DNA of 64,000 nt from a virus. Its lineage: Duplodnaviria; Heunggongvirae; Uroviricota; Caudoviricetes. The stretch is taken from IMG/VR virus record IMGVR_UViG_3300031911_000001, positions 101,881 through 165,880 of that record, one strand, 5' to 3'. Both the position numbers and the translations under genes were made by a program. This document shows, one piece after another, positions 1 through 14,121 of this stretch. Numbering within the stretch: the stretch's first letter is position 1; every line of letters starts with the position of its first letter. Below the pieces are notes generated by a model that had not been told where the DNA came from, did no database searches, and worked only from the letters and a program-made list of their open reading frames with translations.

Positions 1-653
1 AAAAGGACGCCTCGCTTGTTCGTATTGACGACCGTCAGCAGGGCATTCTCTGGGAGCAGCATCGGCAGGACACGTACTTCCCACACGTCATCGAAATTCT
101 CTTTGATGCTCTCGGCATTGTAGGCAGACTGCGTGCCCATGATGAAGTCTTTGGCCCCGATCAATCGCCCGTAGTGAGCAATGAAATCTCTCGAGAACGG
201 GGTGAGCCGGTGATCCATCAGTCCAATCGAGAACTCGACGTGGGTGTAGCACACGACCTTGACGAATCGTTGAATCCCGGTCAGGTGTACAGGACTGATG
301 CCCTCGATGCTGTTGATGATGATCGTGTCGTAGATGTTCTCGCTCAGGGCTTGGAACAGGGCGTCACGGAGGTTGATCTCTTTCTCAAGGTTGGCCGAGT
401 CCGAGAAGCTGAACATGCTCACGTGCTTGCTGTACGGCAGGGGGTTCTTGGGGTAGTAGACCGTACCGCTCAGATCGAGAGCCTTGAGGAACTCCATGTC
501 GGCAGGTTCCTTGTCGCATATCAGGTCTACGATGGCACCCTCTGGCTTCAGTACTTGTTCATAGAGTCCCTTGATGAATTGACCTGCACCGCCAAAGGCG
601 ATGAAGTGTGATGCCGTCGAGATGATCCCGACACGGCGGTTAGAAAGTTTCAT
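1..653 (-). CDS. Glycosyltransferase, GT-B/GT4-like, N-terminal part (runs off window edge)
   Basis: Manually translated ORF missing from the track: MKLSNRRVGIISTASHFIAFGGAGQFIKGLYEQVLK...DTIIINSIEG...VVCYTH...RVLPMLLPE...RGVLF. The beta-strand + GG start and the x-T-H / VLP / VLF pattern are typical of GT4 N-terminal Rossmann domains. Start overlaps the HAD gene stop. Confidence 0.7.
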   Translation of the reverse strand, partial: MKLSNRRVGIISTASHFIAFGGAGQFIKGLYEQVLKPEGAIVDLICDKEPADMEFLKALDLSGTVYYPKNPLPYSKHVSMFSFSDSANLEKEINLRDALFQALSENIYDTIIINSIEGISPVHLTGIQRFVKVVCYTHVEFSIGLMDHRLTPFSRDFIAHYGRLIGAKDFIMGTQSAYNAESIKENFDDVWEVRVLPMLLPENALLTVVNTNKRGVL

Positions 654-1044
654 GGCGGACGTTTTCCTTCTCGACGAGGTCGTGTTGCAGAAGTACCACA
701 CTGATGTCTGGGTTCTGCTCTTGGATGATTTTGGCCTGAATCGGATCATCCTCGAAGTGAATGTCGATCTTGGTCAACTGTTGACGCTTGTTGAACATCT
801 TGATCGTGATGGCCTTGTGGTGACCACTACTCTCCCGGGTCTTCAGGTCGAAGATGATCGGGTTGAAGTAGACCTGATTGAAGATGCCTCGCTCACCGAG
901 CATCGCCTTGGTCTCCTTCTCTTCTTCGAAGGACCGACCGGTGATGATCACATCACGTTGACCGGGGTAGACACCTCGACGGCCAGGACCCATGAAGATC
1001 ACGCCATCAATATCGTACGAGTTTATTGTGTGGGGCCAGGGCAT
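640..1044 (-). CDS. Small HAD-superfamily phosphatase
   Basis: HAD motif I YDIDGV, motif II ITGR, conserved K, motif IV FEDD; AGGA RBS. Confidence 0.75.
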   Translation of the reverse strand: MPWPHTINSYDIDGVIFMGPGRRGVYPGQRDVIITGRSFEEEKETKAMLGERGIFNQVYFNPIIFDLKTRESSGHHKAITIKMFNKRQQLTKIDIHFEDDPIQAKIIQEQNPDISVVLLQHDLVEKENVRHETF

Positions 1045-1208
1045 TTTGAATATCCTACGATCTTGCTGATCATGTCGATCTTTTCAGGAGTGTCGGCCTT
1101 GTCGATGAAGTATTTTGAGGCCGCCTCGTCAATCTCATCCTGTAGTTTAGGACTGATCTCTTCACCGGGGCCATGACAACCCGGGGTCTTGATGTTTGCT
1201 TTGGGCAT
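1023..1208 (-). CDS. Hypothetical protein (61 aa)
   Basis: Fills the gap between ino1 and the HAD gene; no motif recognised. Confidence 0.35.
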   Translation of the reverse strand: MPKANIKTPGCHGPGEEISPKLQDEIDEAASKYFIDKADTPEKIDMISKIVGYSKCPGPTQ

Positions 1209-1272
1209 GCACTTCTACCGGTTGGTTCTCATTCGGAGGAACCGACATTTCTGCCGGTTCCGTTACCGGTTC

Positions 1273-2580
1273 TTAGTCTCGAGGCAGCTCGGTGACCGAA
1301 GTGCCACGTTGCTTCGCAGCAGTGTCGAAGATGGACTGGATGACCCGGTCAGCCATCACCGGAGACATATCACCAATGTCGATGAACTGGATCTTGCGAT
1401 CGTCCTTCACTTCACGGTTGCCGGTCGTTTCACGGCGGGTCGTGGTGTATGCATCAGGAATCATGCGCAAGGCCAGCAGCTCACATTCATGCTTGGCTTC
1501 GGCATACGGCATCTGGTAGGGAGGAGTCTTCTGCGTCCATGCCGATGGGCCGAACAGGGGTCCGAAGATGCCCAGTTCATTGGCGACCTTCAGGTGACGA
1601 ATCGCATCGATCACGACGCCTGCCGAGTTCTCCGAGTCCTGCACCGAGAGCTTCACGTCAATGTCGATCTGGGCACCACCGAAGCTCTCGAGCTTCATCG
1701 TGATATAGGCGACCTTGTTGTCCTTGAGATAAGGAATGAAGCTGGAAGGGCCGGCGAAGATGGAGTCGTCATCCACAGGGATGTCACGAATCACGTTCTG
1801 AGCCTTGATCACGTTTTCCTTGCTGATCTTCTTGCTCTTGACGCGGGTGGCGTCCATCATGTTCGCGAAGTCGGTGTTGCCGCCGACGTTCAGCTGTTGG
1901 TGGAACTTGACTACCGCACCACGGTCGAACGCCAGTTCCTGCAGCACTTGGCTCAGGACCGATGCACCGACTTGGCTGCGCATGTCGTCACCGATGATCG
2001 TCACTTGCTCATCGAGGAAACGTTGAGCCCAGACCGGGTCCGAGGCAATGAACACCGGGATGCAGTTCACGACATTGACCTTGGCGGCCAGTGCGCATTC
2101 CATGTAGAACTCGGTGGCCTCTTGGGAGCCGACCGGCAGGTAGTTCAGGATCACGTCGACCTTCTGACCAATCAGCACATCGACCACATCGTTCATGGTG
2201 TCCGGCTTGTGATCTTTGTCTTCCTCGAACTTGATCGTGTGATGGAAGTCGTTCATGTGCGGGGCGATGCCGTCGATGGTAGGGCCACGACGAACGATGA
2301 CGTTGTCGCAGACCCCGGGCATGATCTCTGGCTCGAACACGTTGACGACGTTCGGCTTGGTGTAGATCGCGTTCTTGAGGTAGCTTCCAACCTTGCCTTG
2401 GGTCACGTCCCACGCTGCGACGAACTCGATATCAGTCGGGGCATAGCCACCGATGCTGTCGAACATCACTCCGGGGATTTTGCCGCCTTGTTGACGACGG
2501 GTGTAATAGCTGACACCCTGAATGAGGGCCGACGCGCAGTTACCGACACCGACGACGGCTACTCGAATTTTCTTTGTCAT
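1273..2580 (-). CDS. ino1: myo-inositol-1-phosphate synthase (NAD-dependent, bacterial type)
   Basis: IRVAVVGVGNCASALIQG, NYLPVGSQEA, VNCIPVFIAS, GDDMRSQVGA, QLNVGGNTDF, KSKKISK, KLSVQDSENSAGVVIDAIR. ATG 2580 preferred over GTG 2595. Confidence 0.95.
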   Translation of the reverse strand: MTKKIRVAVVGVGNCASALIQGVSYYTRRQQGGKIPGVMFDSIGGYAPTDIEFVAAWDVTQGKVGSYLKNAIYTKPNVVNVFEPEIMPGVCDNVIVRRGPTIDGIAPHMNDFHHTIKFEEDKDHKPDTMNDVVDVLIGQKVDVILNYLPVGSQEATEFYMECALAAKVNVVNCIPVFIASDPVWAQRFLDEQVTIIGDDMRSQVGASVLSQVLQELAFDRGAVVKFHQQLNVGGNTDFANMMDATRVKSKKISKENVIKAQNVIRDIPVDDDSIFAGPSSFIPYLKDNKVAYITMKLESFGGAQIDIDVKLSVQDSENSAGVVIDAIRHLKVANELGIFGPLFGPSAWTQKTPPYQMPYAEAKHECELLALRMIPDAYTTTRRETTGNREVKDDRKIQFIDIGDMSPVMADRVIQSIFDTAAKQRGTSVTELPRD

Positions 2581-2719: not shown

Positions 2720-3457
2720 TCAACGGCAGTGAGGAGCAACTTCACCGATCTTGTTGACGATGCGATCCACCAGACGCTTACTGTAGGTCACGCCCGGGTG
2801 GACAGTGTCAGGTACGTCATCTGCACCATTGAACTCGACAGTGTCAAGGTCAGCAAAGGGAACCTTGAGTTCCGCAGCGATTTCCTTGACCTTGGCGTTC
2901 CACATCACCCGGTTCATGAGAGACGTGTAGCTAACACCAAATCCCGGCACCTGATGAGAGAAGCCGGTGATGATCGGGGTACGACCTTCGGCTCGCAGCA
3001 CAGTGATCAAGTCACGGTAGTTCTGTTCGATTGGAAGCCCGTACCAAGAGTCGATCACGCCATGTTCGATGACGACGTACTTTTCGGTGCGTTGCTCATT
3101 GTAGGCAACCCCCATGAAATCCTTGAGGCTGCGGCCGGGGACCGACATGTCACGGAACTTCATCTTCGGCAGAGCACGGTTCATCAGGACCACCGGTGAG
3201 TGGTCAGGGTCTGTGGCGTAGGTGGTTGCATTGATCTGTTGCCCACGCATGATTGAATCACCGTAGACCACGATCGTGCATTCCTTCTCATTGACTGGTG
3301 GCTTGGGGGCAGGCTCCTGAGGTGCTGGTTGCACAGGAGGGGCAGCTACAACCGGTGGAAGCATGATGGGGAAACCACCGCTACTTCCACCTCCACCCCC
3401 GCCGCCTCCACAGGCAGTCAATACACTAAGCGCCAATACTGTCAAAACTGTCTTCAT
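2720..3457 (-). CDS. SGNH/GDSL hydrolase lipoprotein
   Basis: Lipobox LTAC then Gly/Pro linker; block I YGDSI, block III HGVIDS, block V DTVHPG. Confidence 0.85.
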   Translation of the reverse strand: MKTVLTVLALSVLTACGGGGGGGGSSGGFPIMLPPVVAAPPVQPAPQEPAPKPPVNEKECTIVVYGDSIMRGQQINATTYATDPDHSPVVLMNRALPKMKFRDMSVPGRSLKDFMGVAYNEQRTEKYVVIEHGVIDSWYGLPIEQNYRDLITVLRAEGRTPIITGFSHQVPGFGVSYTSLMNRVMWNAKVKEIAAELKVPFADLDTVEFNGADDVPDTVHPGVTYSKRLVDRIVNKIGEVAPHCR

Positions 3458-4900: not shown

Positions 4901-5299
4901 TCACATGAAGTCTAGAAGGCTCGGTGGAGGTGTCTGATCGTCAGGATTTACAATGAAGATGTCAACATTGAGGCCTGCCTTGCGGGCACGCTTGATCATG
5001 TCCCGGGTTCCATTGGATTTGCCATCCCAGATAGCTACCAATGCATCGGCATAGTCGGCCATGTCTTGATTGCGTTTGAAGCCTGCTTCAGGGTCGAACC
5101 CTCCATTGGGATTCCAATTGGCAGGCATCTCTTTGCAGGGAATGCCGTGGAACTTGGCCCACTCATATCCGAGGAAGTCGATGCCACGAGCCATTCCACT
5201 GACGACCTCAGTCACCTCTAGATGGGGGCATTTACTCATGATTGAGCCGACCAGCTCAGGGTCGGTCAAAGTGCGGGAGCCAGCAATGATTACTTTCAT
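4901..5299 (-). CDS. SLOG-superfamily (YspA/DUF2493-like) protein
   Basis: MKVIIAGSR, VVSGMARGID, AGFKRNQDM, WDGKSNGTRDMI. Confidence 0.8.
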   Translation of the reverse strand: MKVIIAGSRTLTDPELVGSIMSKCPHLEVTEVVSGMARGIDFLGYEWAKFHGIPCKEMPANWNPNGGFDPEAGFKRNQDMADYADALVAIWDGKSNGTRDMIKRARKAGLNVDIFIVNPDDQTPPPSLLDFM

Positions 5300-7576: not shown

Positions 7577-8037
7577 GCCTTGCTGCCGTCCGTGAATGAC
7601 AACAGGGCATTGGTGTGAATCTCGGCGTGTTCTTTGATGAGATGCACAAGGCCGCGCTCAAGCACCCGCTTATCCCAAGAAGTGTTCTGCCATGTCGTCG
7701 TTCCGATGTCCCCATACGTGATGTTCGGGATGTAATACAGGGTGCGCATCGCCGGCTCCTTGGTCTCTGGCGCAGGCACATCAAACTCACCGATGCGGAT
7801 CGTCTTCAGCTTGCGACGGTAGATGTAGCCATTGATCCAAGAAGGGTGATTTCCGATATCTTGCCATTCTTTGGTATGCGCGTGCTTGAATTGCCAGCGC
7901 TTCCACGGCTCAACCGTCTCTGCCGCATCCTGCGCATAGAGTGCCATTTCCTTGGCAAAAGGATGTGGTTGATCCTGAGCCGGTTGATCCCTCATGACGA
8001 GGCTATCAAGTCTGAACATTCCTTGGGTGGTTGCCAT
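7573..8037 (-). CDS. Conserved phage hypothetical protein
   Basis: YAQDAAETVEPWKRWQ...YRRKLKTIRIGEFDVPAP resembles a widespread uncharacterised phage family. Confidence 0.65.
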   Translation of the reverse strand: MATTQGMFRLDSLVMRDQPAQDQPHPFAKEMALYAQDAAETVEPWKRWQFKHAHTKEWQDIGNHPSWINGYIYRRKLKTIRIGEFDVPAPETKEPAMRTLYYIPNITYGDIGTTTWQNTSWDKRVLERGLVHLIKEHAEIHTNALLSFTDGSKA

Positions 8038-9302
8038 TAAACAAAGTCCATCAAATTGGTTGGTCGGAGGGCAATCTTCTTGCTACGGAAGACTGACCCA
8101 AACTCTTGGTCCCACTGATTGTACGACACTGCATCAGTACATTCAAGGAATGATTTGAGACGGTCCCATTCCGATGAGTCGACGTAGGTCTTGAAATACT
8201 CATCGAGGTTGCTGTCGCACCGGTGGAGCTCTTCTTGGAAGTTACGCACCGAGGTCATCACGATGGCACAGAAGCTGTCGATGATCCGGTAGTCGGAGCC
8301 GACCTTCAGCTTCATCTTTCCTGCGCTCGTCGTCATGTTCTCATGGAAGTCCTTGAGGCTGTACTGGAATGACGGGTAGTGACGTTGAATGTCGTTCAGG
8401 ATGATCTCGTAGTCCTGATTCAGTTCACGGGTGAAGGTCTTGTTGACGGCACCCTTCATGACGTGGCGGCCCATGTGCGGGGCACTGCTATGGCTCGTTG
8501 AGTCGTAGCTGATAGCCACGTCCTTGAGCCAGCCGTTCTTGCGAAGGCACATCGTAGCGAACATCAATCGAACGGAGCCGATCCCCAAAAAGTGGATGTA
8601 CTGTTCAAGGTGACGATGACGAGAGAGGATGTTCGCAGCAACCGCAGTGCGGAGCACCATCTCCTTCTCAGCCATACCGAATGAGCCACCGCCCATGGCA
8701 ATCCCGCCAAGGTACTTGTGATCCTCAAAGGGGATGATATCCAACATGATATCGGCCCACTCGTTGGCGTTCTGGAAGTTATTCCCATGGATGATCATCA
8801 TGGGCTTGGCCTTCGTCTTCTGCTCCTTGAAGACCCTGATCTGGTCGATCAGATTCTGGGCAGACTCGATGGCCTTGTTCTTGTATCCGTCGATATCAAA
8901 GAACCGGGTGTTCATGTCATTGCGGGCCGACTTACCCCCGACCGTGATCAGGGGAATCTCGTCAAAGCTCATCGCAATGTCGGAATACTTGGCTTGGTTC
9001 AGGTAGATTTTGCGCTTGATCTCGTCATCGACCTGAGCACCCTGCGTGATGATCTGTAGGCCGCCAGAGTCCGCATGGGTCTTGTAGTAACACCCTTTGA
9101 AGTTCTCGAACGCGATGGGGAACTTCTTCTCGCAGTATGCGTTGTACAGGAGTGAAAACCGATGGTCGTCAACCCCGTCAGCCTGCTTAAAGTAGTGATG
9201 GAGACGCTTGGCTTCCTCCGGGAAATCACGGATCGAGGGGTAGGTGATACGGGAGTACGAGACCCCCGACATCACGTATTCAAAGGAGTGTTTTGTTGTC
9301 AT
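8037..9302 (-). CDS. dpdA: DpdA-like (TGT-fold) 7-deazaguanine DNA transglycosylase
   Basis: TGT motifs [33 protein letters not shown]; no tRNA-TGT CxCxxC zinc site; adjacent to folE and queD. Confidence 0.8.
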
Positions 9303-9967
9303 CGAGCAATAGACATGAATTCAGCACGGGTCGTGGCATTGTCCAGGAAGGCGCCACCGAGCTTTGAAGTGATAGTATGTGACCCGTGATCTTCAACTCC
9401 GCGTGATTTCACACAGTAGTGTTCGGCATCAATGTAGACGGCAACGTTCTTTGTACCCAGAATGTAGCAAAGAGCATGCCAGATTTGATCCGTCAGTCGC
9501 TCCTGAATCTGAGGACGGCGAGCAAAGTACTCAACGATTCGATTGAGTTTGCTCAGGCCGAGTACCTTCCCCTCTGGGATGTAGGCAACCGTGGCCTTGC
9601 CGTCGATAGTGACGAAGTGGTGCTCACAGGCAGACATGACGGTGATGTCCTTTTCGACGACCATCGAGTCATAGCCCATCTTGTTTTGCACCGTCGTCGC
9701 CTTCGGAAAGTTCTCGGGATTCAGTCCCCAGAAGAGTTCCTTGACGTACATCTTGGCAACCCGACGTGGAGTGTCGCACAGGCTGTCATCGGTCAGATCG
9801 AGACCCAGAGTCTCCATGATCTCACCGAACAGGCCGGTGATCTTGCGTACCTTCTCGTCATCGCTCAGAGGGGTATTGACAGTCGGGGTATTGACCTTCA
9901 CTGCCTCCAAGTACGATTGAATTTCGAGGCCGAGTTTCGGGTCAGTTTTTGTAGATTGAAAAGACAT
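9299..9967 (-). CDS. folE: GTP cyclohydrolase I
   Basis: [50 protein letters not shown]; ATG 9967 has an AAGGA RBS. Confidence 0.97.
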
Positions 9968-10011
9968 CCAGTTTCCTTGTTTTATATGTCGTGGGATACT
10001 TACCAATCAAA

Positions 10012-10677
10012 TTATTCGGTAAACCCATGATGCATCTGCTGCTTGACTCCTTCAAGCAACTCTGCTGGTGTCTGTGCTTGCCACCGTGGCTCCTTAATCA
10101 GAAGGCTGCTAGCCATGCCGATCAATTCTTCTTCTCGTCCAGCCGTCAGCTGGCGATATGCTTCAACGGTCGGGGCACCGAAGTTTGCCAGAGCAAAGTT
10201 GATGGCTTCCCACTGGTCGGCATGGAATGAACAGGCGTTCTTGTCGTGCTCACGGCATTCGACTTCGGTCAGTACGCAACGGCCATTCGTCACGGCAAAG
10301 ATGTAGTTGTTGACGGCCATGAAGATGAACAGTGCCGACTGCTCCATCGAGACACCAGACGGCATCACACGCAGGTTGAACACCTTATGCACATCGTTGA
10401 ACTTGACCGTCGCTTCGAGGCGTGGATCGTCTGCAGAGATCAAGGACGTGTGATCGAAGTAGTACTCGAGGAACTTGCGGACTTCCTTGAAGTGGCCGAA
10501 TGGGAAGACCCATCCGTGTTCATCGATCTCACCCTCAATCTTGAGAGTTACGCTTCGGTCGTAGCCGTGAAACTTGGCGCACGATCCACTGAACTGCTCG
10601 TTTGATTCGTCCTTGTCGAACCACTGTTGGTGGGCACAGGGTAGATTCGGAAAGGTTTTGGCGGTCGAGAATTTCAT
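10012..10677 (-). CDS. queD: 6-carboxytetrahydropterin synthase (QueD/PTPS-like)
   Basis: CAH...CAKFHGY, GWVFPFG, FDHT, E-H-x-x-N near the C-terminal part of the fold. Confidence 0.85.
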   Translation of the reverse strand: MKFSTAKTFPNLPCAHQQWFDKDESNEQFSGSCAKFHGYDRSVTLKIEGEIDEHGWVFPFGHFKEVRKFLEYYFDHTSLISADDPRLEATVKFNDVHKVFNLRVMPSGVSMEQSALFIFMAVNNYIFAVTNGRCVLTEVECREHDKNACSFHADQWEAINFALANFGAPTVEAYRQLTAGREEELIGMASSLLIKEPRWQAQTPAELLEGVKQQMHHGFTE

Positions 10678-11166: not shown

Positions 11167-14121
11167 TCAACTGAAGATATCATCGCTCCACTTCGGGTGA
11201 ACCTTCTCGGGTTCGACCTTACCATCGGACACGAACTTGTTGAGTACCAGAGCCTTCTCGGTCTTGTCCTTCAGTTCGTTCTTGGCGTGTTGCTTGGAGA
11301 ATGTCTTTCTCTCCTGCTCCTTCGGTTGATTGCGCTGCGTCATTTCGTTCACCTCATAGGTAATTGCTCCATCACCCGTGATTGTACAGTAAATCAGGAG
11401 AGTCGGGGAACTTTTATATCCTACGAGCTTGATAGGGATATCCGGATCAATTTTCATCCGAGTACCACGGTTGACGACAATTTCACACTCATCTTGGTGG
11501 CCGCCCCAATCACCGGGGATTACGCTCAACGTCTTGTCGAGGCCGGTGATCACCAGCATACACGAGAGCTTACGACCATCATCGGTAACTGCCCCTACAT
11601 CACTCAACTTGATCAGATCGTCGACGCTCTTGATGGTCTGGATGACGCTGGCCGAGGAAGTGACGTGTGCGGCATTGATGGATTCATTCTTGAGGAATCC
11701 ATTTGCCACCATCATGCTCATCGACGTAGAGACATAGCCGTGCATCACGTACTCTTTGCCCTCCATCAACCCTCTGAGCTCGGAGTCTAGGATGGACTGG
11801 CCGCGGAACACGACGAGTGACTTAGGCATAGGCCGGCCATACTGCTTGAAATAGTCGTCGGCCCCCTTGATGAACTGAGGCGTCTTTGTCCAATCGACCT
11901 TATTTCCACGGAGGTAACCGTTCATGGCACTGTAAGCCGAGCCGGTGTATCCAGCGATTTCGGAATTCTCAGGGAAGTAGGCGTTTTGGGCCTCTGAAAG
12001 CTGAGCCTTGATGCTGTACTTGTCATACAGCAGGGCCGCCTCGACCTTGTTCTTTGCAGCACTGAATTCGGCACTACCCGCACCCAGTACCGTCTCGATG
12101 TTACTGAGCTGCTTAAACAGCTTCTCAGGGGTGTCGGTGGAGAACTTAATTGCGAATCCACCAACCTCAATATCGAGTTCATCGAGTGTCGAGAAGATGC
12201 TTTTGTACGTCTTCCATTCAATCGGGGTGCGCTCACCCTTATCTGCAGGAGGGTTCTCACTGAGCCACTTGACCGTCTCTGCAGACAGGGGCATACCCGT
12301 CTTGCCACGCAGACCATTTGCCATGCCCTTGGGAGCCTTCTTGGCAACCACCGGGGTCGTCTCGGTCGGAGTCGTCTTGGTCGCTGTCTTGGTGCCAGCG
12401 TTCACGATGTACTCGGTGTCATTGGCAGCATAGAACTTATAGATGCCATCCAGACCGGTGTTCAGGCCAGAGAGTTCCAAGACAATTGACTCCTCAATTG
12501 CATTCTTGAATTCTTGGACAATGAGGTCTTTCTTCGGAAGACCTTTAGGGACAGACCATCCTTGGATGTCATGGATAGCACCGCCGAGACTCTTCTGTAC
12601 CTTCGCCTTCACAGCGACACGCAAACCCTTGTACCACTCCTGAGACTGCATCCATTTCTCAGCTGAGCTGAAATCCGACTGAGACATGAAGAAATGAGCA
12701 TCGGCAAGGAACTTCAATGGGTCTGCATCTGCAAGATGGAACCCGTTGGCGTCATAGACCTTACCGGTCAGCCCAATGAACATGAAGTTTTGTGCCGTCT
12801 TGAAGCCGGGAACGAAGAAGTATTGGAACTCTGCCTTGACTGGAGCCTTGACCTCTGGCGGCTTGGCTACCGGAGGTGTGACCGGGGCAGGGATATTGCT
12901 ACCCATGGCAAGAGCCAACTTGGAGATGAAAAGAGCAGTCTTCGGGAACTTCTTCTGATTCGTCGGCTTGTTGACGTCATCCAAAGCCTTGATCATCGCT
13001 TTGTAATTACCGGCCAGAGCAGCGGTCTTTGCCTTTGCTGCGTGCGGATTTTTAGGAACAAACCCCGGATCCTTGGGCCAGATACTGGCGGCAATCTTAT
13101 CGACTTCTTCCTTCGTCAATGCCTTGGCTACAGGCTTCGGAGCAGCCTTGGCCTTTGGTGGTTCTTCGTCAGGGAGAATCTTGAACACACCCTTCAGCTT
13201 TGACCCGGCTTCTTTATTCTTAAGATACTGGATCCAATTTGAAATAAGGGCACCCTGACCATCACCGATGACCATGTTCATTTCATAGTTCAGGATGTGA
13301 TAGAAGTCGGCCGTGGCTCCATAGAAGCTATGGCCCCACTTGTTATAGAGATTATCAAACTCTTCGGTATCACCGGCTCCGGCTGCATCCACCATGTCAT
13401 CGGTATTACCTGTGATTGGTGCACCAGTGAAGCCATAAAGAGCATCTATTATTTCATACGACACCTGCTTACCGAGAGGTTGATTCGCTTGGTAAGCAAC
13501 CTTCTTGGTCGGCTCAGGAGCATTGACAGACGTACCGGCAGACATCTTGATGTCGATCTTCTCGCCGGTGAGAACCTGACCGAGATAGCTGTTGAAGACG
13601 TTGGCCGTGCTGGCGGCTTTGCGTTTGATCACGATGACGTCGAAATCGCCATCCTTGGGGAACTTGCCGTTCAATTGCTCTGCCGTCGGGATCACCACAT
13701 TCTGCACGACCTCGAAGTCCGGACGCAGCAGCTTCGTGACGATGGCCTTGAGCGAGCTCATCTTGATGCTGAACTTGTCCTGTTGAATCACGACGATCCA
13801 GCCGTTTTTCTTCTTCGTCATGACGTTGGAGCCAAAGGCGTGCTCATATAGGATTTCACGCAGGGCGCCGAAGAATTCCAGAGGCTTGTCGATACGCTGG
13901 ATCAGGGGCTTGAACTTCTTCTGGTCCGGGGACACTTCACCGATACGCACCACCTGAACGTTCTTGCCGTAGGTGGCAAGGTTGTCGAACTTGGCCTGAT
14001 ACTCGTGGGAGTCGGTTCCGATCTTGTACGTCTGGTACGACCCCGTGACCGTCGGCTCGTCCATGGAGTAGTGCTTGTCGCCGGCGGGTTTGGTATTGAA
14101 AAGTTCGTCTATTCTTAGCAT
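11167..14121 (-). CDS. alt: Alt-like NAD:protein ADP-ribosyltransferase (R-S-E clade)
   Basis: YTGSAYSAMNGYLRG, VVFRG, YVSTS, DECEIVVNRGTRMK; N-terminus MLRIDELF resembles T4 Alt MELITELF; late promoter upstream. Confidence 0.85.
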   Translation of the reverse strand: MLRIDELFNTKPAGDKHYSMDEPTVTGSYQTYKIGTDSHEYQAKFDNLATYGKNVQVVRIGEVSPDQKKFKPLIQRIDKPLEFFGALREILYEHAFGSNVMTKKKNGWIVVIQQDKFSIKMSSLKAIVTKLLRPDFEVVQNVVIPTAEQLNGKFPKDGDFDVIVIKRKAASTANVFNSYLGQVLTGEKIDIKMSAGTSVNAPEPTKKVAYQANQPLGKQVSYEIIDALYGFTGAPITGNTDDMVDAAGAGDTEEFDNLYNKWGHSFYGATADFYHILNYEMNMVIGDGQGALISNWIQYLKNKEAGSKLKGVFKILPDEEPPKAKAAPKPVAKALTKEEVDKIAASIWPKDPGFVPKNPHAAKAKTAALAGNYKAMIKALDDVNKPTNQKKFPKTALFISKLALAMGSNIPAPVTPPVAKPPEVKAPVKAEFQYFFVPGFKTAQNFMFIGLTGKVYDANGFHLADADPLKFLADAHFFMSQSDFSSAEKWMQSQEWYKGLRVAVKAKVQKSLGGAIHDIQGWSVPKGLPKKDLIVQEFKNAIEESIVLELSGLNTGLDGIYKFYAANDTEYIVNAGTKTATKTTPTETTPVVAKKAPKGMANGLRGKTGMPLSAETVKWLSENPPADKGERTPIEWKTYKSIFSTLDELDIEVGGFAIKFSTDTPEKLFKQLSNIETVLGAGSAEFSAAKNKVEAALLYDKYSIKAQLSEAQNAYFPENSEIAGYTGSAYSAMNGYLRGNKVDWTKTPQFIKGADDYFKQYGRPMPKSLVVFRGQSILDSELRGLMEGKEYVMHGYVSTSMSMMVANGFLKNESINAAHVTSSASVIQTIKSVDDLIKLSDVGAVTDDGRKLSCMLVITGLDKTLSVIPGDWGGHQDECEIVVNRGTRMKIDPDIPIKLVGYKSSPTLLIYCTITGDGAITYEVNEMTQRNQPKEQERKTFSKQHAKNELKDKTEKALVLNKFVSDGKVEPEKVHPKWSDDIFS

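Follow-up and report, generated by a model that had tools for sequence, protein, structure and literature searches.

Hypermodification of phage DNA decides which restriction, CRISPR and other nuclease defences are evaded, and it supplies enzymes for DNA labelling. The phage 7-deazaguanine systems combine FolE, QueD, QueE and QueC with DpdA and, as summarized in PMC9025141, produce dPreQ0, dADG, dG+ and dCDG, among others (Hutinet et al., 2019). Here we analyse a window of 64 000 nucleotides, bases 101881–165880 of the 167 950-bp genome of an uncultured T4-like phage (IMG/VR record IMGVR_UViG_3300031911_000001, rated complete by CheckV). Its left end carries three co-oriented genes: ino1, which encodes a homologue of myo-inositol-1(3)-phosphate synthase (Ino1), a gene for a small HAD phosphatase and a gene for a GT-B glycosyltransferase (GT). 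DNA hypermodification is the likely purpose of this trio. Our best reading, to which we give about an even chance of being right, is an inositol-bearing DNA base, built in this phage on 7-deazaguanine and possibly glycosylated as well.

Like the described 7-deazaguanine systems, the genome holds a full set of base-synthesis enzymes and a TGT/DpdA-like enzyme. Unlike them, it adds an inositol-phosphate synthase, a HAD phosphatase and a GT4-like glycosyltransferase, which the described systems in the literature searched do not have. The same literature describes no polyol- or sugar-bearing deazaguanine in DNA, and no paper was found that ties inositol synthesis to phage DNA modification. The Stenotrophomonas Menderavirus cluster has earlier been interpreted as one for queuosine/deazaguanine, and the same paper lists ino1 of phage Ps15 simply among bacterial-like genes next to those for queuosine (PMC9025141).

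The 5-hydroxymethylpyrimidine systems are marked by a 5-hydroxymethyldeoxyuridine (5-hmdU) DNA kinase (5-HMUDK, PF18723) and an amino acid:DNA transferase (ADDT, PF18724), or by TET/JBP with a P-loop kinase. In these systems ATP activates a substituent of the base, and a supplied nucleophile then attacks, which is also the logic that we propose here. They include O-linked substituents, for example in phage ViI. To our knowledge, every substituent of a known hypermodification is an amine, an amino acid or a sugar, and a cyclitol would add a chemical class to these. The present system differs in that the genome has neither ADDT nor 5-HMUDK, and the part of activator would fall to a QueC-like enzyme of the PP-loop kind, with a purine analogue as its substrate.

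Cap9, a QueC-like protein, uses ATP to ligate carboxy-deazaguanine to a nucleophile that is not ammonia (10.1101/2025.04.06.647259; PMC13082051). Cap9, from type IV CBASS, and QatC resemble the QueC-like protein of this phage in being PP-loop enzymes of the QueC kind, and joining carboxy-deazaguanine to a non-ammonia nucleophile is the reaction that the phage enzyme might share with them. They modify proteins in defence, however, whereas the phage enzyme keeps the zinc site of QueC and may do no more than produce preQ0. Phage DNA glycosyltransferases of the GT-B fold are described for arabinosyl-5-hydroxycytosine in RB69 and DLP3 (PMC13326640) and for glycans on 5-hydroxymethylcytosine (bioRxiv 10.1101/2023.12.21.572611). 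GT belongs to the same fold class, and in the DLP3 cluster, too, enzymes of sugar supply are accompanied by a small HAD phosphatase; the described glycosyltransferases act on pyrimidine hydroxyls, whereas the family of the window GT is tied to QueE, FolE, QueD and DpdA. The early steps of mycothiol synthesis (Ino1, MshA and the phosphatase MshA2) employ the same three enzyme classes as the trio.

Identity of the ino1, HAD and GT genes

The initial annotation had proposed ino1, a HAD phosphatase gene and a GT-B gene in a single orientation, with the last two overlapping. At the family level these identities hold (Pfam and PDB matches, motifs and fold), and none of the three genes is a mere chance open reading frame. 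The arrangement is also borne out: the stop codon of the HAD gene lies at 640–642 and the start codon of GT at 651–653, giving an overlap of 14 nt. The strand, which had not been stated, is minus for all three. Antisense open reading frames on the plus strand (3–611, 601–1176 and 1189–2649, up to 486 aa) shadow these genes and could mislead gene callers. A plus-strand reading was rejected because the translations are compositionally odd and low-complexity-like and have no family matches.

The ino1 gene (1273–2580, minus strand) encodes 435 aa. Its product matches Pfam Inos-1-P_synth (PF01658) over the full model (1–107) with 82.1 bits (cut-off 27) and phrog_33138 with E 7e-158, and residues 6–371 match Ino1 of M. 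tuberculosis (1GR0) with E 1.4e-91. The second-best PDB match is 6K96 (E 4.7e-48), a five-membered cyclitol phosphate synthase. The motifs VGVGNCAS (NAD), NVGGNTDF, SKKISK, DNK, QDS and QKTPP can be aligned with those of 1GR0 and do not vary among 11 phage homologues; we take their Lys and Asp residues to have the catalytic roles of their counterparts in the yeast and M. tuberculosis structures. Against TIGR03450 (mycothiol_INO1) the score is 329 bits, under the equivalog cut-off of 638. Judged by its sequence, the protein is a diverged family member and not the actinobacterial equivalog. Family membership and the conserved residues suggest that it turns glucose-6-phosphate into inositol phosphate. 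The protein ends in a C-terminal tail of ∼ 60 aa (1273–1460, minus strand) that neither the ∼ 374-aa relatives nor 1GR0 have. Ino1 requires NAD, and in the closest relative (locus L006) NadR-like adenylyltransferase/Nudix and NAMPT genes of NAD salvage adjoin ino1 (L006:2447–4853); in Xanthomonas phage X1 the same NAD-salvage genes adjoin the GT homologue (L012:4477–7488).

The HAD gene (640–1044, minus strand) encodes a predicted capless (C0-type) phosphatase of 134 aa, assigned by motifs I–IV, phrog_415 and structure matches in the Atlas. The motif residues D11, D13 and G14, T35/G36, K77, and D99 and D100 show little or no variation across 37 homologues. The match to phrog_415, the phosphatase of polynucleotide kinase (PNK), has E 1.6e-7, and the structural model matches HAD_PNKP/Acid_phosphat_B clusters of the Atlas with TM-scores of 0.65–0.73. 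There is no Pfam or NCBIfam match and no PDB match by profile search; Mendera gp040 is 48% identical. By analogy, a capless phosphatase of the PNK kind would suit a DNA-bound substrate.

GT starts with an ATG at 653 and runs off the left edge, leaving its 5′ 217 codons in the window (1–653, minus strand); the full protein has 451 aa (C1:101178–102533 of the genome, with 702 nt beyond the window edge). Its AlphaFold model (pLDDT 90.8) has the GT-B fold with two Rossmann domains. The GRxxxxK (G220, R221 and K226) and EX7E (E294 and E302) motifs, which define GT4, are invariant across 47 sequences. A Foldseek search of the PDB gave at least 500 matches at E ≤ 0.001. The top 50 are almost all GT-B glycosyltransferases, the best being BshA, sucrose-phosphate synthase (SPS), MshA, GlgM, HepE and a tetrahydrobiopterin (BH4) glucosyltransferase (∼ E 1e-10, 12–17% identity), and among Swiss-Prot models MshA fills most of the top 30 (E ∼ 1e-12, TM-score 0.55–0.62). 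The score against Pfam Glycos_transf_1 is 23.3 bits, under the cut-off of 26.4, which a homologue at locus L143 exceeds with 30.7. Sequence and profile searches of the PDB gave nothing significant; phmmer gave E 0.12 over 60 residues only. Since the DNA-base glycosyltransferases of phages yield the identical list of BshA, MshA and SPS fold matches (PMC13326640; bioRxiv 10.1101/2023.12.21.572611), the resemblance to MshA means ‘GT4-like’ and says nothing on an inositol acceptor.

Deazaguanine genes flanking the trio

On the minus strand the genes follow one another as QueD, FolE, DpdA-like, about nine other genes, ino1, HAD, GT, QueC-like, MazG-like and dCMP deaminase. The QueD-like gene of the PTPS family (10012–10677; Pfam PF01242, E 1.4e-15; phrog_2389), FolE (GTP cyclohydrolase I; 9299–10006; Pfam PF01227, E 3e-61) and the gene for a DpdA/TGT-like transglycosylase of 421 aa (8037–9302), all on the minus strand, lie 5.5–8 kb upstream of ino1. 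QueE sits elsewhere, at ∼ 9.4–10.3 kb of the genome. The DpdA-like protein was assigned because both its structure and its features match clusters of TGT and DpdA in the Atlas, and its DSGGLQ motif is invariant. It has no Pfam match, and sequence and profile searches of the PDB returned nothing significant for it. A Mendera protein termed queuine tRNA-ribosyltransferase in PMC9025141 is 35% identical.

As had been predicted, the operon runs past the left window edge. The end of GT is followed there by genes for a QueC-like PP-loop protein (264 aa), a MazG-like pyrophosphatase and a dCMP deaminase, in place of the nucleotidyltransferase or CDP-alcohol transferase that had been sought to the left of position 1; a PD-(D/E)XK nuclease and the UvsW helicase are also encoded there. 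The QueC-like gene is present in one copy and its product is divergent (48 bits against a TIGR00364 cut-off of 150). The protein has kept the four-cysteine zinc site of QueC (C183, C191, C194 and C197), and Cap9 (9NTO) is a weak PDB match (E 0.02).

Homologues of FolE, QueD, QueE and QueC and a DpdA-like protein are thus all encoded in the genome. A candidate QueF was rejected: the sole match falls inside FolE and reflects T-fold similarity. The flanking QueC-like gene and the QueD, FolE and DpdA-like genes place the trio inside a 7-deazaguanine DNA-modification island. An earlier suggestion, that a hypermodification might be tied to the deazaguanine genes, gains support from the QueC-like gene directly after GT and from the 14 viral loci at which Ino1–HAD immediately precedes such a gene. 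We hold with middling confidence that the trio belongs to this hypermodification island and is not a free-standing glycoconjugate operon.

The 168-kb genome gave no match to PF18723 (5-HMUDK) or PF18724 (ADDT) in a single search whose control genomes were themselves without these families. No sugar-1-phosphate nucleotidyltransferase, CDP-alcohol transferase, PIG-L/MshB-like deacetylase or epimerase was found in the genome. A CDP-inositol/phosphatidylinositol route was rejected, as the genome has neither a CDP-alcohol transferase nor a sugar nucleotidyltransferase.

Ino1–HAD in the hypermodification operons of other phages

An alignment-based scan found Ino1 in at least 538 IMG/VR viral contigs, and the gene neighbourhoods of 85 non-redundant viral Ino1 loci were compared using Pfam labels on the neighbours. 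A HAD gene accompanies ino1 at 71 of these loci, and most of the remainder end just past ino1. Genes for DNA hypermodification lie within 6 kb at 83 of the 85: at 69 they are of the pyrimidine type, where the cassette sits inside a 5-hydroxymethylpyrimidine system, at 14 of the deazaguanine type, and at none of both.

Operons of three kinds were distinguished. Type A, which includes Caulobacter phage Cr30, comprises TET/JBP, sometimes an FkbM methyltransferase, ADDT, INO1, HAD and P-loop nucleotide kinase 3. Type B comprises a thymidylate-synthase-like protein, dCMP deaminase, INO1, HAD, 5-hmdU DNA kinase, a weakly T4-Bgt-like protein and a C5-methylase-like protein. Type C (14 loci, including the window, L006 and the Menderavirus phages) comprises FolE/DpdA, INO1, HAD, a QueC-like protein, sometimes GT, and QueE; the QueC-like enzyme would be the only ATP-dependent activator at these loci. 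When only genes of 100 aa or more are counted, the one that comes next after Ino1/HAD encodes an ATP-using activator at 40 of 75 loci (P-loop kinase 21, QueC-like 10, 5-hmdU DNA kinase 9), and the first sizeable gene upstream of INO1 is ADDT at 32 of 80. The replication genes gp44/45/46/47, RegA and UvsW are also found within Ino1 loci. A quick maximum-likelihood tree of Ino1 mixes the three operon types and forces six or more label changes for each. The association therefore arose repeatedly and is not one inherited accident.

Among GenBank phages, Ino1 is encoded by the Stenotrophomonas Menderavirus phages, Caulobacter phage Cr30 and Ralstonia phage RP13. HAD lies close downstream in all of them and GT is present in none, and all three of these cultured lineages conform to the hypermodification pattern. 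The order is FolE-ino1-HAD-QueC-DpdA-QueE in Menderavirus and ADDT, an unannotated 308-aa gene, ino1 and HAD in Cr30; in RP13 a member of the same ADDT-like cluster as that of Cr30 lies ∼ 4 kb upstream. A search of GenBank phages for DNA nearly identical to the present sequence found none.

One locus (L170, 10004–14091) encodes Ino1, an S-adenosylmethionine (SAM) methyltransferase of 187 aa, a 401-aa fusion of an LNS2-type HAD with a QueC-like domain, and a TGT-like protein. The 187-aa gene after ino1 had been considered as the HAD gene and was rejected in favour of a methyltransferase. In pyrimidine-type operons an FkbM-type methyltransferase gene often stands beside or between ino1 and HAD, as INO1-FkbM-HAD at L159, L160, L163, L164 and L167; the order FkbM-ADDT-INO1 was seen at L131, L136 and L138. 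This placement may point to O-methylation of the cyclitol in certain phages.

GT is absent from 80 of the 85 Ino1–HAD loci, including those of the Menderavirus phages, Cr30 and RP13. Where both are present their order varies: ino1-HAD-QueC-GT at L006, DpdA-GT-ino1-HAD-QueC at L112. The trio consists of two units, a portable Ino1–HAD cassette and a separate GT family.

The glycosyltransferase family

Relatives of GT are encoded by 488 IMG/VR viral contigs. The counts given here refer to the best 80 of them (loci L013–L092), with 32–39% identity. None of the 80 carries ino1 and none the HAD gene, and Ino1 is encoded in none of 20 large whole records with GT, of which four are complete genomes. 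Clustering placed QueE at 74 of the 80 loci, usually directly or one small gene upstream of GT, and an NAD-dependent epimerase/dehydratase-like gene at 64, mostly directly downstream of GT. By tblastn, FolE was found at 61, QueD at 59, QueE at 56 and a DpdA-like gene directly downstream at 24; another tally of these loci gave 60 for FolE, 57 for QueD and 23 to 24 for the DpdA-like gene. Because its constant company is QueE, FolE, QueD, DpdA and the epimerase, GT most likely glycosylates a deazaguanine derivative; its occurrence beside QueE, FolE and DpdA on 488 viral contigs leads us to predict a deazaguanine, glycosylated and not yet described.

Some GT clusters (for example L007:4433–13486) add phosphoribosyltransferase, IMPDH/GMP-reductase-like and small cytidylyltransferase-like genes. 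Beside FolE, QueD, QueE and the sugar epimerase, GT clusters carry either a DpdA-like or a GP88-family protein; the latter was considered as a DpdA-like homologue and rejected, as there is zero similarity. The gene mix recalls the toyocamycin and tubercidin nucleoside pathways and suggests, by analogy, a glycosylated carboxy-deazaguanine or a route at the nucleotide level.

A model for the trio and its alternatives

In the model that we favour, Ino1 would convert glucose-6-phosphate to inositol phosphate, and the HAD phosphatase would strip the phosphate, either from free inositol phosphate or after the cyclitol has been attached to DNA. Ino1–HAD would thus act as a portable cassette that hands a polyol nucleophile to whichever base-activating chemistry the phage has. 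In other phages it would feed the 5-hydroxymethylpyrimidine route (TET, P-loop kinase or 5-hmdU DNA kinase, ADDT), in this one the 7-deazaguanine route (FolE, QueD, QueE, QueC-like, DpdA-like). We infer that the QueC-like PP-loop ATPase might activate the 7-carboxyl or amide of the deazaguanine and that an inositol hydroxyl might be joined there; the DpdA-like enzyme would put the base into DNA before or after this step. GT would most likely draw on a host nucleotide-sugar to glycosylate the deazaguanine derivative, or in this phage might instead glycosylate the inositol. In the resulting virion DNA, a bulky 7-deazaguanine carrying a polyol or sugar would stand in for part of the G and keep host nucleases from cutting. 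A precise structure, with myo-inositol on a 7-carboxyl-derived side chain of virion 7-deazaguanine in this phage and its relatives, including Menderavirus, and with further glycosylation by the GT4 enzyme here, we put forward tentatively, as a possibility more probably wrong than right. The polyol linkage is the weakest part of the model; like the acceptor atom and the arrival of inositol at the DNA, it is proposed from gene neighbourhood.

Several observations weigh against an inositol-bearing base. T4-like phages cluster genes of nucleotide metabolism and DNA modification anyway, and some adjacency is expected. The nearest structural families of the HAD protein in the Atlas include DNA 3′-phosphatases and dNMP phosphatases. 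A QueC-like gene is not detectable at the best 80 GT loci, and the subfamily of the phage QueC-like protein occurs without ino1 at 8 of 17 close viral loci. The phage QueC-like enzyme may be an ordinary preQ0 synthase, in which case no obvious electrophile would be left for inositol. We know of no precedent in DNA for an ester or imidate linkage to deazaguanine.

The likeliest of the alternatives, which we nevertheless doubt, takes the genes as unrelated neighbours. As an auxiliary metabolic module, Ino1 and HAD would make free myo-inositol in the infected cell, for a membrane lipid, as an osmolyte or in diverting glucose-6-phosphate, only GT would serve the deazaguanine genes, and the adjacency would reflect the general clustering of early and plastic-region genes in T4-like phages. 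The independent distributions of Ino1–HAD and GT, the replication genes that share Ino1 loci and the QueC-like loci without ino1 are all as expected from this explanation. It is harder to reconcile with hypermodification genes close by at nearly every Ino1 locus, with immediate neighbours that are activating or transferring enzymes (ADDT upstream, a kinase or QueC-like protein downstream), with a link that recurs over three chemistries and with repeated switches on the Ino1 tree, or with the HAD::QueC-like fusion at L170. An inositol lipid is further disfavoured by a genome with no CDP-alcohol phosphatidyltransferase.

The initial annotation had leaned on MshA/PimA-style logic, with GT acting on an inositol acceptor and HAD trimming the intermediate. 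In such a pathway the GT4 enzyme would glycosylate the inositol phosphate made by Ino1 and HAD would dephosphorylate it, mirroring the first three mycothiol steps or the pair of SPS and its phosphatase, and would yield either free glycosyl-inositol or a glycan of the virion or host surface. The trio is contiguous here, with HAD and GT overlapping, and MshA dominates the Swiss-Prot fold matches and stands with BshA and SPS at the top of the PDB list. Synteny of ino1 and GT in related phages had been named as a test, and the two are largely non-syntenic: none of the 80 GT loci and none of the 20 records holds ino1, most Ino1–HAD loci are without GT, and the gene order differs where both occur. 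As GT and ino1 are distributed independently, an MshA-like glycosyl-inositol pathway is poorly supported. Identity to MshA is 13–17%, with no sequence-level match even by profile, and DNA-modifying phage glycosyltransferases give the same fold matches (PMC13326640). The genome has no PIG-L/MshB-like gene, and the context, unlike that of mycothiol synthesis, is DNA modification. We consider a pathway of the MshA type distinctly unlikely.

A different product altogether, with the Ino1 homologue acting as another cyclitol synthase (like Ari2, which makes a five-membered cyclitol phosphate) or the HAD as a dNMP phosphatase that depletes canonical dGMP, and no inositol made, is very improbable: 6K96 as second-best PDB match, T5 5′-deoxynucleotidase and NT5C clusters among the Atlas neighbours of the HAD and the missed equivalog cut-off of TIGR03450 speak for it, but the protein is far closer to genuine Ino1 than to Ari2 and keeps all motifs shared with 1GR0, and the HAD accompanies ino1 at one locus after another, irrespective of the base chemistry, as would be expected if the two shared a substrate.

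The idea of an inositol-bearing base is directly testable because cultured carriers exist, namely Stenotrophomonas phages Mendera, IME-SM1, Moby and YB07, Caulobacter phage Cr30 and Ralstonia phage RP13. Should the myo-inositol-bearing 7-deazaguanine prove real, it would be the earliest example both of a nucleobase with a cyclitol and of a purine analogue in DNA that is hypermodified by a polyol or sugar, and the portable Ino1–HAD cassette would also serve pyrimidine hypermodification in many other phages. One two-gene cassette in three activating chemistries suggests a modular rule of activator, transferase and nucleophile supply, which could predict further modifications from sequence.

Neighbouring genes and minor features

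An open reading frame of 61 aa between ino1 and the HAD gene (1023–1208, minus strand) is of uncertain coding status. It has no Pfam or PHROG match and no homologues, and was a singleton in the clustering of 86 loci. In L006, the closest relative, an opposite-strand NUMOD3 homing-endonuclease gene is inserted between ino1 and HAD (L006:6247–6972, minus strand).

Directly upstream of ino1 lies a gene for a GDSL/SGNH hydrolase-like protein (2720–3457, minus strand; Pfam Lipase_GDSL_2, 45.9 bits), whose membership of the system is uncertain. A homologue is present in the corresponding region of L006, and an esterase or acyltransferase role could matter if the modification were ester-linked. Genes for PKD/Ig proteins and a SLOG protein also lie upstream of ino1 on the same strand. 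A small YAcAr/SLOG-family protein is encoded at 4901–5299 (minus strand), in the same early region as a 984-aa, Alt-like protein with an ADP-ribosyltransferase exoenzyme domain (11167–14121, minus strand).

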